In this document: piece by piece, positions 6,182-12,360 of the stretch | How positions within the stretch are numbered: position 1 is the first letter of the stretch | How the letters are laid out: every line of letters starts with the position of its first letter | DNA from: Oligoflexales bacterium | GTDB taxonomy: Bacteria; Bdellovibrionota_B; Oligoflexia; Oligoflexales; RGVZ01 | Direction of reading: 5' to 3' | Assembly (NCBI GenBank): GCA_044236265.1 | Contig: JBIIGV010000071.1 | Coordinates: 1-15,079 of the forward strand | DNA: 15,079 nucleotides | The notes under the pieces: generated by a model | Seen by the model: the letters and a program-made list of their open reading frames with translations, nothing else | Told to the model about the DNA's origin: nothing | Databases searched by the model: none | Made by a program: the position numbers and the translations under genes

Positions 6182-7363
6182 TTGGACCGAACCGAGATGA
6201 CTGATAACAATCAGCAGCAATTATCACCGCAGATAGCCGAAAGCATCCGGCGCGAAGCGATGGCAGGATTAGTCATGGCCGCGCAGCTTCCAGAATCAGG
6301 ATTAAGCGACGCCGACCACGCTCAAACGAGAGCCAGAGTGCTAGGAGTCTCCCCCACCAGCGACGGCCGTCCTCAAGTGCGCGTTGACTCCACCGGCCTA
6401 TCGCTTGATCAAAAACTCGTTGTTGAGCGCACGCTACTCCGTCACTTTGGCAACCAGGAATTATCGGACGTTGCCATTTACTTCCAGCGATCGAGTTCTG
6501 CAAGTGCCCGCGAATCCGCTCCGGCGCCCGTGAAAAAGAAACATCCACTCGGACTTAATCTTGAGACTAAACCCATTGCTGGAGTTAAAGCGATCATCGC
6601 TGTCGCCTCCGGTAAAGGTGGCGTCGGCAAATCAACTGTTTCGACAAATTTAGCTGCGGGTCTCGCAAGACTAGGACTTAAAACAGGACTCATGGATTGT
6701 GATGTTTATGGCCCATCGTCACCACTTATGCTCGGCGTATCGGGATCCATGCCCGTTGAAAAATCCAAGTTGATTCCCCTCGAAGGACACGGCGTCAAGG
6801 TTGTCAGCTTTGGGTTTCTTACCGACGTAAAATCTCCGGTCATTTGGCGCGGACCAATGGTCGCAAAAGCGATTGAGCAACTTTGCTACGACGTGGCTTG
6901 GGGAGAGCTGGATGTTCTGGTACTGGATCTTCCACCCGGAACGGGCGATGTCCAGATGACATTAGCAGAAAAACTCCCCCTGACAGGTTCCGTCATTGTC
7001 ACAACGCCGCAAGACGTTGCCTTGATCGACGCTCACAAAGCGGTTTCCATGTTTGAGAAAATGAATGTGCCAGTGCTCGGCGTTGTGGAGAACATGTCCC
7101 ACTACACGTGCACGGCGTGCGGGCATGAAGAGCATATCTTTGGTTCCGAGTCGTTCGCTGGCTTTTTGACCTCACGTAAACTTGGATTGATTACGTCCAT
7201 TCCTTTGAGCCGAAATATCAGAGAGCTGAGCGACCAAGGGCAACCCGTAGTTCTTGACGACACCAGCAAATCATCACAACCATACCGCCAACTGGCGGAC
7301 TTCGTTAAAACGGCAATCTCGCAAACACTGCGAGTCGATACAAATCTGGAGAATCAGCTATGA
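6182..7363 (+). CDS. apbC: Mrp/ApbC/NBP35 family Fe-S cluster carrier ATPase
   Basis: VASGKGGVGKST, DCDVYGPS, WRGPM, DLPPGTGD, VTTPQ and ENMS..CxxC motifs. TTG start is supported by AGGAG at 6169-6173; alternative ATG at 6197. Confidence 0.95.
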   Translation: MDRTEMTDNNQQQLSPQIAESIRREAMAGLVMAAQLPESGLSDADHAQTRARVLGVSPTSDGRPQVRVDSTGLSLDQKLVVERTLLRHFGNQELSDVAIYFQRSSSASARESAPAPVKKKHPLGLNLETKPIAGVKAIIAVASGKGGVGKSTVSTNLAAGLARLGLKTGLMDCDVYGPSSPLMLGVSGSMPVEKSKLIPLEGHGVKVVSFGFLTDVKSPVIWRGPMVAKAIEQLCYDVAWGELDVLVLDLPPGTGDVQMTLAEKLPLTGSVIVTTPQDVALIDAHKAVSMFEKMNVPVLGVVENMSHYTCTACGHEEHIFGSESFAGFLTSRKLGLITSIPLSRNIRELSDQGQPVVLDDTSKSSQPYRQLADFVKTAISQTLRVDTNLENQL

Positions 7364-7997: not shown

Positions 7998-8981
7998 ATG
8001 AGTGAGCCAAGTCTGATCCAAAAATTTAGTATAAAAACGACAGCACGCATGGTTGATATGAACTCCCATACAATTCGTGCTTGGGAACGTCGCTACAAAG
8101 CTCTCGACCCCGATCGCAACGAGGCCAACAACCGCCGCCAATACTCCCAGCGCGACGTCGAGCGCCTTTCACTGTTAGCTAGACTCGTGCGTCAAGGTCA
8201 CCAAATCAGTCACATCGCAGGACTGTCCAATGACATTCTAGAGACGATGTTGATGAGCGAACCCGGTGATGCCAAAATAGCAGCGCCACCCGTTGAACAA
8301 TTGATTCTTGGCCGCTGTATCGCTGCCTTGGAAAAGTATGAACTGGTATTGATTCAAGCCGAACTTGAAGCGGCGCGAAATCTGATATCAGCAGAGCATT
8401 TTTTGACGCAGATTGCTGTGCCGCTTTTGCGCGATGTCGGGGCGCGCGTTTATAATGGAACCTTCAGCATTGCACAGGAACACGCATTGTCATCCATCCT
8501 GCGCGCTCAATTGATGCAAACGTTATTTAATCTAAGAAATGCGATCGCCGTCCGCGCATTCACGCGAAAAGATCAAGAGCACGGCCTCTCCATATGTCTC
8601 GCGACCCGTGACGGTGACCTCCATGAATTCGGAATTCTGGCCTCGGCTATCTTGGTTGCCAACGAAGGTCACGTTCCTCACTACTTCGGTCCAAACCTGC
8701 CATCAGCGGCTCTAGCGGATGCTGCCCGCGCGGTCAACGCTGACGTCGTGATTGTGGGCAACACGCCCTCAGCTGAACCTTTTGGCGAACAGCGGCAGGA
8801 AACCTATGCGCGAGATCTTCAAAACAAGATTTCACCTTCTTGTCAGATCTGGTGGGGCGGTGTCTGTACCATCAAAAACCCAGAACTTTTAGGCCGAGTT
8901 TTACAGATCCATACTTTAGAATCCCTTAAAGAGAACCTTCGCTCCGTATTCCCTCACTCAAAAAGTCGTACGACTGTCTAA
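7998..8981 (+). CDS. MerR-family regulator with cobalamin-binding domains (CarH/CarA/LitR-like)
   Basis: MerR HTH with TIRAWERRY signature. Four-helix cap ending AQEHALS. Rossmann B12 domain with GDLHEFG, YFGPNLP and WWGG. Starts 5 nt after the folE stop. Confidence 0.92.
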   Translation: MSEPSLIQKFSIKTTARMVDMNSHTIRAWERRYKALDPDRNEANNRRQYSQRDVERLSLLARLVRQGHQISHIAGLSNDILETMLMSEPGDAKIAAPPVEQLILGRCIAALEKYELVLIQAELEAARNLISAEHFLTQIAVPLLRDVGARVYNGTFSIAQEHALSSILRAQLMQTLFNLRNAIAVRAFTRKDQEHGLSICLATRDGDLHEFGILASAILVANEGHVPHYFGPNLPSAALADAARAVNADVVIVGNTPSAEPFGEQRQETYARDLQNKISPSCQIWWGGVCTIKNPELLGRVLQIHTLESLKENLRSVFPHSKSRTTV

Positions 8982-9011
8982 GTCTGAGACAATTTGTCGT
9001 GGTAACGGACA
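8975..9011. promoter_or_regulatory. Tandem palindromic enhancer (bEBP UAS-like) sites
   Basis: TGTCT-AAGTCTG-AGACA (8975-8991) and TGTCG-TGGTAAC-GGACA (8995-9011). Both are TGTC-N9-GACA, 20 bp apart, about 100-135 bp upstream of the predicted sigma54 start site. Confidence 0.65.
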
Positions 9012-9083
9012 GCTGAGCTTACGCTAATGGATCTAACTGCCTAAAATAACAGAGACCAGCCCCCATGCACCCCCTCCAGGCTC

Positions 9084-9099
9084 TGGCATGGGTCCTGCA
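9084..9099 (+). promoter_or_regulatory. sigma54 (-24/-12) promoter
   Basis: TGGCATGGGTCCTGCA: GG (9085-86), N10, GC (9097-98), close to consensus TGGCACGnnnnTTGCW. Predicted start about 9110. Confidence 0.72.
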
Positions 9100-9109
9100 C
9101 TAAGGAGCT

Positions 9110-9270
9110 CATCCAACCAACAGGTTGGTGGAGTTGTTCGGCGGTTTTCACATTGAATCAAACCATGACACTTTTTTTGAAACAGTCATAAAGATTCATC
9201 AAATTCCATTCTGTTGCTCTTCCTGTTGCCACTCTTCTCTCTCACTCCTCTAAACCGCCGAGCAACTCTC
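9110..9270 (+). ncRNA. Candidate structured non-coding RNA (sRNA or long parA leader); 3' end uncertain
   Basis: Begins at the predicted sigma54 start. Hairpin CCAACC/GGTTGG (9113-9128). 17-bp helix 9131-9147 with 9252-9268, whose only non-Watson-Crick pair is U-G on the plus strand. Inner hairpin 9154-9198. No credible ORF. No known family recognised. Confidence 0.6.
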
Positions 9271-9385
9271 TCTCAACTCTTCCAATCCCCATCAAAATCT
9301 TCATCATAAATTCTCCGTAAACCATCCTTGATATGCTAAACTATTGCATACCACAGATGATTAAAGCTTTCGTACGGAGAGACTC

Positions 9386-10156
9386 ATGAAGTTTGCCGTT
9401 TTCAATCAAAAAGGTGGCGTCGGCAAGACGTCAGTTGCCTGCAATATTGCTGCTTGCTTTGCGCAACAGGGAAAAAGAACGCTTGTGGTTGACTTGGACG
9501 CCCAAGGCAACGCGTCTCACTACCTTGGATTTGATTCTGATCATCCTGAGGGAAAAACCATCTGTGACTTCTTTCAATCCACGATTGGCATCAATTTGTT
9601 TGGATCGTCACTGTCCGAATTTGTGCACTCGACACCGGTCAGAGATCTTTTCGTCCTACCAGCTGATGGACGACTTTTTGAAATGCAACCCAAGCTGGAA
9701 GCTCGCTATAAAATCTTTAAACTTCGTGACGCTTTGAATGAACTAACTGAGTCTGGAAAGTTCTCGCAAGTGATTCTCGACTGTCCACCAGCGATGAACT
9801 TTTACAGCATGAGCGCCCTAATGGCAGCAGATCGAGTACTCATTCCATTTGATTGCGACGCTTTTGCTGTATCGGGGCTCAGTGAAGTTATACGGGTCGT
9901 CGATGATGTCAGAGAGGATCATAACCCCCATCTTCAAATCGCTGGAGTGATTGTGAATCAATGGATTGCCAATGCAAACCAATCAAAGTCAGTACTCGAA
10001 AGAGTGCGCGCGCTTGGGATCAAGGTGTTTGAACCATTTTTACAAACATCGGTTGCCATGCGCGAGAGTCACGACGATCGCCTGCCGCTGGTAAAGTCAA
10101 AACCAAAACACAAACTCACGGCCAGCTTCATATCCTTGGCTAAAGAGATTTCCTAG
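9386..10156 (+). CDS. ParA/Soj-family ATPase (orphan, no adjacent parB)
   Basis: Deviant Walker A NQKGGVGKTS, VDLDAQGN, ILDCPP and ADRVLIP motifs. SD GGAG at 9376-9379. Confidence 0.92.
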   Translation: MKFAVFNQKGGVGKTSVACNIAACFAQQGKRTLVVDLDAQGNASHYLGFDSDHPEGKTICDFFQSTIGINLFGSSLSEFVHSTPVRDLFVLPADGRLFEMQPKLEARYKIFKLRDALNELTESGKFSQVILDCPPAMNFYSMSALMAADRVLIPFDCDAFAVSGLSEVIRVVDDVREDHNPHLQIAGVIVNQWIANANQSKSVLERVRALGIKVFEPFLQTSVAMRESHDDRLPLVKSKPKHKLTASFISLAKEIS

Positions 10157-10623: not shown

Positions 10624-12360
10624 TCAATCAACAGGAACGGCGCGAATCACGTCCGCAAACGTTTGTCGCAATCCTTCATGGTTACTTGAACCCGTAAATG
10701 ATGCGAGGCAGATCGCTGTGTGTGTTCCAGGACGCATCACCAAGGCATGCGTGACATTCTCCAAGACCACATCAGAATGATCAAACCATGCATCAGGCTC
10801 GCGACCTTCTACTATTGTTCTGAGTGAGGCCTCATTATGCCCCTCTGGCAGCTCAAGATAGACGTCTGATCGCGTTCCATCTTTCACCCATCGTACACCG
10901 ACAACTTCATTGTTAGCGCGAACGATGGCCAGCAACCCTTGCCCAATACCAACCCGGCACGCGACATCAGCTATTTTGGTGAGGGCCCGCGCCATGTCAG
11001 TTGTTACTTGAAGAGAGATCAAAACACGATTTAGATGAGCAATTCCTGCATGACTCGACGACTCAATCGTTACATCTTCCGAGCCAATCAAATCAAGGTC
11101 AGGCTCGTTAGCAGCTGTTGCTTCAATTCCACTAATCTCTGGTTGCACATCGCCTGGTATATCCTGATGGTCACCAAACTGCGGTTCAAACGAGTTGGTC
11201 TGATCACCTGAGCCGTCTTTGACCGTTTCTCCAGATTCGAAATCCTCAGGAAAATCTGTTGACGCCTCTAGGCTCTCATCAGACTGGAACTCCGGATTTA
11301 GAGTTTCTTCAGGCTGCACTTCGACCGATGTATCTAGCGACAAATCCACGTCTTGACCTGAAGCATCAAAATCAGCAGGAGTCTGTGATGCCTCGAGATT
11401 TTGGGCAGCTACGTCAAGCGCCCCAATCTCATCAATCTGGTCTTCTTTTTCCGTCGGTTCGCTCAATTCACCATTCAAGGTCGCGTCAAGATTCGCCGTT
11501 TGCTCTGCGTTGGCAGTCAGCAATTCAACTTCCTGTTCAGTTTGAGCCGGCATAGCCTGCTCATCCGCTGGACCCATGTCTGTTTGCACGCTCTGTTCAT
11601 AATATTGAGGGGCTGCTATCTCCTGCATATTTGCAGAGACAGAAGGATCTGATCCCAAATCAGAGCTCACAGACTCAGCGGCGACTTGATTTGTCGCTTG
11701 CGCCAAATCCGAATCATCATTTAGCTCTTGGAAACCATCATCAAGCCATCCACCAGCTGGCACACTTGAGGCGACGCTGCTAGACGCCGCCGCTGGCGGA
11801 GCCACCATCTCGCGGGCATTAGACATGGGGCTGTCGTTCTGTTTAAATATTCCCGTTGAATTTCTACTGGTCGCTGGGAGTGGAGGCCTGCCCAATGTGC
11901 GCAGCAAACCTTCAAACCCGCTTTCTCCGATATCCATGGGAGCCCCAATACGTTGCAAGGCTCGATGAATTTCACTCAGTTTTGCTATCATCGGCTTGAT
12001 CCGCAGACCGGTGAAAAATCGCACTTGATTGATAGCGTCCTGATCCGTTGTATCGACCATCGCCAAACGCAGTAACCCATCGTTAACAGATAAAGGCACC
12101 ACCTCCAACCATGCCAAAACATGTAATGGCACGAGGGTGGCAACAGCAGGATCTAAATCGTGCATGATATCTTTAGCCACTTGAAGGCATCCTGTCTTGG
12201 AAGCCATCAAAGCCGTAAGCTCATCTTCGTCCAAAAGCCCCATGGCTAGAACTGATCTTGCGAAACTGCCATGATAAGCCGCACTCTCCCGCTTGATCAT
12301 CTGCCGATCAGCCGCCGACAAAATTCCTTCCTGGACTAAAAATGCACCAAGACGCGACAT
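10624..12360 (-). CDS. MshEN/T2SSE_N-domain protein with long acidic linker and unknown C-terminal domain; no ATPase domain
   Basis: N-terminal RLGAFLVQEGIL and VVPL....LRLAMVD..D..AINQVRFFTGLRIKP typical of GspE/PilB N domains. About 230 aa of D/E/S/Q-rich low complexity. No Walker A. AAGGGG SD. Confidence 0.82.
   Translation of the reverse strand: MSRLGAFLVQEGILSAADRQMIKRESAAYHGSFARSVLAMGLLDEDELTALMASKTGCLQVAKDIMHDLDPAVATLVPLHVLAWLEVVPLSVNDGLLRLAMVDTTDQDAINQVRFFTGLRIKPMIAKLSEIHRALQRIGAPMDIGESGFEGLLRTLGRPPLPATSRNSTGIFKQNDSPMSNAREMVAPPAAASSSVASSVPAGGWLDDGFQELNDDSDLAQATNQVAAESVSSDLGSDPSVSANMQEIAAPQYYEQSVQTDMGPADEQAMPAQTEQEVELLTANAEQTANLDATLNGELSEPTEKEDQIDEIGALDVAAQNLEASQTPADFDASGQDVDLSLDTSVEVQPEETLNPEFQSDESLEASTDFPEDFESGETVKDGSGDQTNSFEPQFGDHQDIPGDVQPEISGIEATAANEPDLDLIGSEDVTIESSSHAGIAHLNRVLISLQVTTDMARALTKIADVACRVGIGQGLLAIVRANNEVVGVRWVKDGTRSDVYLELPEGHNEASLRTIVEGREPDAWFDHSDVVLENVTHALVMRPGTHTAICLASFTGSSNHEGLRQTFADVIRAVPVD

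Follow-up and report, generated by a model that had tools for sequence, protein, structure and literature searches.

A predicted sigma54-driven RNA family of the Oligoflexales whose loop motif recurs in mRNA leaders

What is encoded between the CarH-like gene and parA in this DNA of an Oligoflexales bacterium, where a -24/-12 element is directly followed by a long foldable stretch? We refer to the whole stretch of DNA analysed (15,079 nt) as the window. An earlier note on the window had proposed an enhancer-controlled small RNA or, as the alternative, a regulatory leader of parA. The element almost certainly belongs to a real and apparently undescribed RNA family, with the following features at and around the window copy.

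6182..7363, + strand: mrp/ApbC-type gene, a recurring upstream neighbour in families f1, f13 and f15
7998..8981, + strand: MerR/B12-binding (CarH-like) gene, a neighbour only in part of genus g1 and outside the system
8975..8991, no strand: distal enhancer-like palindrome TGTC-N9-GACA, overlapping the stop of the MerR/B12 gene
8995..9011, no strand: proximal enhancer-like palindrome TGTC-N9-GACA, a second perfect copy
9084..9098, + strand: sigma54-type -24/-12 promoter TGGCAT-N6-TGC (GG-N10-GC), with TGGCA and TGCA invariant in a 12-row alignment
9111..9270, + strand: predicted non-coding RNA, its 5´ end deduced from the distance to the promoter and its 3´ end uncertain; no intrinsic terminator here
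9113..9128, + strand: 5´ hairpin P1, optional (missing in genus g3, longer in family f13)
9131..9147, + strand: 5´ arm of the 17-bp closing helix P2
9146..9153, + strand: conserved linker UUCACAU (family pattern UCACMUU or UCCCUU)
9154..9198, + strand: inner hairpin P3/P4 with a UUUGAAA loop; P4 is genus-specific
9199..9251, + strand: open C/U-rich loop, the predicted decoy surface
9211..9218, + strand: loop motif copy 1, CUGUUGCU
9223..9230, + strand: loop motif copy 2, CUGUUGCC, usually CUGUUGUUGCU in relatives
9252..9268, + strand: 3´ arm of P2, pairing with 9131..9147
9386..10156, + strand: ParA-family ATPase gene, downstream in few relatives and outside the system
10624..12360, - strand: MshEN-domain gene used as synteny anchor; in most relatives the RNA lies just past its 3´ end on the opposite strand

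The nested fold described previously, with its 5´ hairpin at 9113-9128, long closing helix, inner hairpin and C/U-rich loop, holds at every coordinate. The inner pairings are TGAATC/GATTCA (9154-9159 with 9193-9198) and ATGAC/GTCAT (9165-9169 with 9185-9189), and P2, 94% Watson-Crick, is the sole long inverted repeat of its kind in 8400-9900. The fold has a z-score of -5.0 on the + strand, where none of 200 shuffles was equally good, and of -2.7 on the - strand. Pyrimidines make up 43 of the 53 nt of the loop. A weak 4-bp pairing is predicted within it and the mean unpaired probability is 0.84; in this prediction the window-copy loop is mostly, but not wholly, open. The element was also said to contain no real ORF, and none of at least 60 aa lies within 8981-9386. 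Across the family, a conserved small ORF with a ribosome-binding site was found in none of 39 of the 45 members, the other six have unrelated ORFs, and indels in the loop break the reading frame in the family alignment, which led us to reject a leader peptide or dual-function RNA. Two checks suggested earlier turned up neither a known family nor a dispersed repeat: Rfam 15 gave no match at the element (E up to 5) or in 14 homologue loci (E up to 1), and the RNA is single-copy in the source genome by BLAST and by covariance model, which dismisses a REP/MITE repeat. Elsewhere in the window, an inverted repeat and a terminator-like hairpin lie between convergent genes at 511-641, with weak chance matches only in Rfam.

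The promoter reported directly ahead of the fold is present as TGGCAT-N6-TGC, and throughout the family it takes the form TGGCAY-N6-TGC, in which the base before TGC is C, G or A and never the consensus T (45/45). Among 89 scored sigma54-like motifs in the source genome, only this one precedes a long-range helix that stacks perfectly over more than 11 bp. The upstream palindrome was absent from the earlier note, as were the repeated loop motif, the matching mRNA leaders and a mechanism. Perfect TGTC-N9-GACA sites occur in 17 of the 45 family upstream regions (0.1 in shuffles) and sites with at most one mismatch in 29 of 45 (2.6 in shuffles), mostly 80-125 nt ahead of the promoter; other spacer lengths of the palindrome occur 0-1 times in these regions. 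Genus g3 is set apart by having the site in 0 of 6 genomes, and all six share a block, TTTGGTCGCATGTT, about 110-130 nt upstream of the promoter (L094-L099) and have no P1. The source genome encodes rpoN and 12 full-length-scoring sigma54 enhancer-binding domains, and in it the perfect enhancer stands at 8 of 90 sigma54-like motifs, a count made without shuffle control that includes secreted-protein genes with GUUG leaders. The enhancer-defined regulon, mostly secreted or lipoprotein genes, is spread over contigs C76, C94, C139, C183, C209 and C214 of the source genome. From these elements, the RNA is very probably transcribed from a sigma54 promoter.

Altogether, 52 copies were recovered, 45 of them scored in the main family analysis and 7 later. 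They come from 43 genomes of six Oligoflexales families and from 2 metagenome contigs; counts across related genomes overstate independence. BLAST found the RNA in 8 of 12 same-genus genomes and in 0 of 47 others, the records with same-genus copies being mostly labelled Oligoflexales. Three kinds of member were found outside the training set. A covariance model built from 9 sequences added G010, which has a perfect 17-bp P2 of different sequence and the same promoter upstream. A synteny search at the MshEN anchor added G007 and all six g3 genomes tested; in G002 and G003 the anchor position falls off the contig. Finally, 40 anchor loci of other families, 4 of them cut by contig ends, gave 17 of 36 usable loci with promoter, long helix and pyrimidine loop, all on the strand opposite the anchor, as expected. 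A metagenome scan gave 3 matches, of which 2 were real and one (L072) was a chance match, as were the pattern matches inspected outside the Oligoflexales. Further copies, not linked to the anchor, came from a pattern search and a sequence-only model; genomes of family f13 have two or three copies each. Of 7 further matches checked, 6 have the strict promoter pattern, all 7 the long helix and 5 the enhancer. With these insensitive models, no copy was found at the anchor in 7 f12, 2 f2, 1 f3 and 1 f16 loci, and 36 genomes of the class that lie outside the order gave no convincing copy; the model R2 misses even the copy of the source genome. A literature search returned no paper on the RNA or its motif, and no regulatory RNA in Oligoflexales; subscription journals and the supplements of Bdellovibrionota transcriptome and RNA-motif papers lay outside its scope, and an unnamed copy could figure in such supplements.

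Family f13 has a second subtype at the MshEN locus, with a long 5´ domain, no inner hairpin and a clear terminator (L103, L104, L108, L109, L111, L148), and its mrp-linked subtype sits elsewhere, in tandem in G074 (L151). Two candidates, in G081 (L119 1457) and G080 (L138 409), are doubtful members with the variant promoter TGGTAC-N6-CGC and a different, poor closing helix; they were dropped before the 45-copy counts.

Members share an order of promoter, optional 5´ hairpin, closing helix, short UCACMUU-like linker, inner hairpin and pyrimidine-rich loop, and in automatic folding 44 of 45 form a closing helix 11-21 bp long. Conservation and covariation of this helix, which the earlier note had asked of relatives, were found as two-sided changes. 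In a plain MAFFT alignment of 9 sequences, 96.5% of cells are paired and two-sided change affects 9 of 32 pairs, a result that no slid control reached; in P2, 6 of 17 pairs change in this way. A model-fitted alignment of 18 rows, including one wrong-strand row, has two-sided change in 31 of 32 pairs and leans toward the model. The wobble polarity that had been noted in the window as agreeing with the promoter direction is a family trait: among 699 P2 pairs of the 45 members, 42 are G-U and none is an A-C mismatch, in helices that were called on the + strand. Subject to that choice of strand, G-U pairs without A-C mismatches fix the + strand. Promoter, enhancer and this polarity led us to reject a minus-strand, CsrB-like reading of the GGA-rich complement.

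The neighbourhood bears on whether the element acts in cis, either as leader of parA or as the 3´ structure of the convergent MshEN-domain mRNA. The neighbours that recur across families are mrp upstream and the MshEN-domain gene downstream, and the tight linkage to the 3´ end of the latter would suit such a role, as would the lack of a detectable intrinsic terminator between element and parA in the source genome. Since none was found there, read-through into parA is possible, or the 3´ end of the RNA may be made by processing or Rho; a U-tract lies within 60 nt downstream in 11 of 45 members. Against action in cis, parA lies 3´ of the RNA in 1 of 8 BLAST relatives (and on one metagenome contig, while in G012 it is on another contig), extra copies are not linked to the MshEN gene, the window has 1.3 kb and two genes (parA and a 143-aa ORF) between RNA and MshEN gene, and the element has its own promoter and enhancer and a G-U polarity that points to the + strand. 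A cis-acting element is thus very unlikely; of the two readings offered earlier, the parA leader falls away and the small RNA survives as a prediction. The MshEN-domain protein itself has a long acidic linker of very variable length and is conserved in 70 of 94 genomes of the order.

What the loop presents is a repeated short motif. YYGYUG occurs 136 times in 44 of the 45 loops, compared with 6.6 times in shuffles, within otherwise variable loop sequence, and one member carries five near-tandem UUCCCGUUG-like units. Motif bases are on average 55% unpaired in predictions. In several members the motif resembles the 5´ arm of P2 and could therefore serve an internal switch. One reading of such an architecture is a 6S-like decoy of RNA polymerase or sigma54, in which the GUUGCU of the loop copies a -12 box; an end-joining helix with bubble and inner stem, and the match of GTTGCT to many -12 boxes in the source genome, are in its favour. 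This is most improbable: the bubble is very asymmetric (about 7 versus 53 nt), a canonical 6S gene lies elsewhere, and the reading leaves unexplained the leader arrays described below.

The same motif recurs, in the same sense, in mRNA leaders of the source genome. Antisense RNA predicts the complement of its motif in its targets, and a decoy predicts the motif itself. We examined 1722 intergenic leaders (-65..-5) for at least three UGYUG against 30 dinucleotide shuffles, with gene starts and signal peptides called by rough in-house rules. Such arrays were found in 12 leaders (shuffle mean 3.2, max 6), compared with 1 in antisense (0.9 expected from shuffles) and 2 of 1226 trailers; five leaders carry 5-9 copies, and the top 7-mers of loops and of leaders overlap. 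The products are signal-peptide-like for 11 of the 12 (39% of the rest) and lipoprotein-like for 7 (12% of the rest), and a sigma54 motif accompanies 3 (2%). Pfam assigns PKD, papain-like peptidase, matrixin-like peptidase, an EEP-family enzyme and one carboxyl transferase, and leaves 7 without a name. In 6 of the 6 top leaders the last copy overlaps the Shine-Dalgarno or lies 0-7 nt from it, and copies often also fill the spacer ahead of the start codon. The arrays are conserved. Leaders of the matrixin-like lipoprotein and its orthologues were taken from the 30 best of 66 genomes, one of which had no start; of the remaining 29 leaders, 25 hold at least three copies, and the total is 136 motifs against 4 in trailers and 14.7 in shuffles. 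A strict leader pattern was found in 15 of 130 genomes and its reversed control in 2; of 16 matches inspected, 9 precede signal-peptide-like ORFs, and several others are due to chance.

These leaders weigh against a repressor that acts by base pairing, in which the C/U-rich loop would anneal to target mRNAs at CARCRGG(A) or at the Shine-Dalgarno. GcvB and Hfq-independent C/U-rich sRNAs are models for such an RNA, UCCUGUUG is complementary to CAACAGGA, and the loop pairs with start regions at a mean of -19.6 kcal/mol, compared with -17.1 to -18.6 for shuffles. The complement of the motif is not enriched near starts in the source genome, however, no target stands out, the best duplex energies equal those of shuffles, and the same-sense arrays would be left unexplained. 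We consider base pairing of this kind unlikely.

Instead, the RNA probably acts as a decoy of some kind, and on balance we lean towards a decoy for a putative translational repressor protein. The sequence basis of this model consists of the promoter, the enhancer, the covarying helix, the loop motif, the same-sense leader arrays and their conservation. One enhancer-binding protein would switch on the RNA together with several targets, in a coherent feed-forward loop. The RNA would be made, P2 would join the ends and hold the loop of repeated (C/U)UG(U/C)UG motifs open, and the helix may protect the ends or represent a processed boundary. A protein that binds the motif would block translation at leaders where copies abut or flank the Shine-Dalgarno, and the loop would titrate it off these leaders. 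Likely targets are secreted proteins and lipoproteins (the matrixin-like protease, the papain-like protease, the PKD protein and the EEP-family nuclease/phosphatase) and a small cytoplasmic protein. The two motif copies in the window loop are a low valence for a sponge; leaders of the same genome have up to 9.

Two other kinds of decoy have to be weighed. In the first, a C/A-rich sRNA pairs with the GUUG leaders and the RNA titrates that sRNA and not a protein. This would explain the same-sense match equally well, and the C/U interchange within the motif is what pairing to G tolerates. It is rather unlikely, as none of 13 other intergenic clusters, judged by eye, stood out as a structured cluster of the complement (a partner with a single seed would have escaped notice), no Hfq was found, and overlapping arrays of up to 9-11 short copies would better suit a protein. 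In the second, the leader arrays recruit an activator, a stabiliser or a membrane-localising protein, e.g. an RRM protein; the RNA, induced as part of a response, would tone that response down. G/U-rich leaders can be enhancers, the targets are mostly exported proteins, and RRM proteins are encoded in 127 of 130 genomes, a distribution so wide that co-distribution with the RNA is uninformative. The position of copies 0-7 nt from or over the Shine-Dalgarno, often filling the spacer, is the geometry of occlusion, however, and makes a positive factor rather unlikely as well.

If the partner is a repressor protein, one candidate is a Bdellovibrionota-specific 96-aa protein encoded by the second gene of a sigma54 operon with a perfect enhancer on contig C81. 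It was reached as the orthologue of a small cytoplasmic protein found with the strict leader pattern. In its best 30 orthologues, 24 leaders have at least three copies, with 159 motifs compared with 1 in trailers and 12.9 in shuffles. Self-repression is common among such regulators, and the rich, conserved array is as expected of an autoregulated binder; the protein may be that, or may merely be a target. It is single-copy in 100 of 130 genomes, a wider spread than that of the motif, and has no significant Pfam or PDB match, its nearest Atlas clusters being unnamed Bdellovibrionota proteins. The operon (L241 1823-2540, - strand) encodes two small lineage-specific cytoplasmic proteins of about 75 and 96 aa that share an N-terminal IV(S/D)(L/F)..(R/K) motif, and the operon promoter is conserved across the class.

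Arrays and RNA coincide imperfectly. Among a further 40 leaders of the C81 gene, those from f12, f2, f3, f10, f17, g2 and 9 of 11 f19 genomes lack arrays, and no RNA was found there either. Arrays are present where no RNA was found in f14, f9, one genome each of f16, f4 and f8, and two of the 11 of f19, and G025 has the RNA and no array on the C81 orthologue. A search of 10 genomes, most with arrays and no RNA found, returned weak non-member matches only, with a model that misses the source genome's own copy. The leader element thus has a wider distribution than the RNA as detected; copies may have been missed or left unassembled, or the repressor can exist without the decoy. CsrA, for example, is described as present without such a decoy in FliW-controlled bacteria (PMC4894983).

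Other candidate binders are two single-RRM proteins and RapZ, which the source genome encodes along with CsrA. The leaders of the RRM-protein genes carry no motif, and CsrA is ruled out on motif grounds. Hfq (PF17209), cold-shock and Ro60 (PF05731) domains were not found in the source genome, which is 89% complete, and for RNase III a search with one sequence motif gave no match. Upstream of csrA (L100 1653-1850), 200 nt hold four UGYUG, and the gene is flanked by what we take to be flgL-like and fliW-like genes. A dksA-like gene of an f12 genome (L193 1538-1996) has three UGYUG before its Shine-Dalgarno.

How does this RNA compare with known decoys? CrcZ and CrcY of Pseudomonas are described with an RpoN promoter, an enhancer-binding activator, a repeated motif common to the repressed mRNAs and redundant copies (PMC8395346). 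The Oligoflexales RNA resembles them in its predicted RpoN-type promoter with upstream activator site, its repeated motif and its multiple copies in f13. It is, however, about 130-190 nt long and G/U/C-rich with one long closing helix, whereas CrcZ has 407 nt and A-rich motifs for Hfq; such motifs are missing from the pyrimidine-rich loop, where GUUG/GCUG words are enriched, and the Hfq domain was not detected in the incomplete source genome. Like CsrB, RsmY and RsmZ, it repeats a short motif that also lies at target ribosome-binding sites and is predicted to relieve repression by titration. Those RNAs show GGA in hairpin loops (PMC13443453), unlike the inner region here, which has no GGA in the window copy and 0-2 in relatives (45 members), even though CsrA is encoded. 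A same-sense motif in target leaders near the ribosome-binding site is typical of protein-sequestering decoy RNAs and occurs here too, in the leaders of the predicted targets, which gives the RNA a decoy signature of the CsrB/CrcZ type with a different motif.

GlmY of Enterobacteriaceae is described as a sigma54-driven decoy sRNA (PMC7073468, PMC4152352) whose activator binds TGTC-N10-GACA (PMC3045617). Our palindrome is one base shorter than that GlrR site, with N9 in 17 of 17 perfect sites and N10 in 0 of 45 regions. RapZ is shared, with rapZ directly after rpoN in the source genome; at L101 1987-2862, neither hpf nor ptsN lies between the two. The RapZ of the source genome has a shorter basic tail at its C-terminus, with 4 basic residues in the last 19, compared with 8 in E. 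coli. GlmY mimics another sRNA, whereas the motif of the Oligoflexales RNA matches mRNA leaders, and no Rfam match was found. Pxr of Myxococcus is likewise a small structured RNA behind a sigma54-type promoter, from a lineage that is predatory or related to predators, and is described as three consecutive stem-loops behind pxrR/pxrK (PMC5684412); the fold here is nested, with no adjacent two-component genes among the scanned neighbours. In Bacteroides, the multicopy FopS sRNAs and the single-RRM protein RbpB are described in an Hfq-less host and in envelope-protein control (PMC11697453). FopS acts by base pairing, whereas the Oligoflexales targets carry the motif itself and not its complement. 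Neither 6S nor Y RNA fits: there is no RF00013 match and no rod with a symmetric central bubble, the 6S RNA of the genome being encoded on contig C139, and the Ro60/TROVE domain was not found in the source genome. Y RNAs are recognized by a bulged-C stem, and P2 is unbulged in the window copy. The RNA would work most like CrcZ and CsrB, yet fails the defining tests of CrcZ, CsrB, GlmY, Pxr, 6S and Y RNA.

The few bacterial decoy-RNA circuits that we know of are Csr/Rsm, Hfq-Crc and RapZ, and we know of no bacterial regulator with a specificity for GUUG/GCUG arrays, which is the RNA-binding specificity predicted here. One far-reaching and doubtful possibility is that Oligoflexales have a third kind of circuit for the global repression of translation, next to Csr and Hfq/Crc. 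Its repressor, perhaps the 96-aa protein, would be an RNA-binding protein outside all described families that recognizes GUUG/GCUG arrays where ribosomes bind the mRNAs of exported hydrolases and lipoproteins. It would repress itself and be released by a sigma54-driven decoy under the same activator, thereby gating a secreted toolkit. With exported proteases, nucleases and lipoproteins as its targets, the circuit may set when secreted enzymes are produced in these little-studied relatives of predatory bacteria. The RNA, its promoter, its enhancer, the motif and the target list were all obtained from the DNA sequence alone.

Two further observations concern similar sequences elsewhere. Contig C160 of the source genome (3013-3119) holds about 35 tandem GTT units (CAA on the other strand). 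In G055, a non-coding stretch after position 1613 of L163 is likewise driven by a sigma54 motif, structured and rich in pyrimidines, and carries CCUGUU repeats; it is separate from the family copy of that genome.
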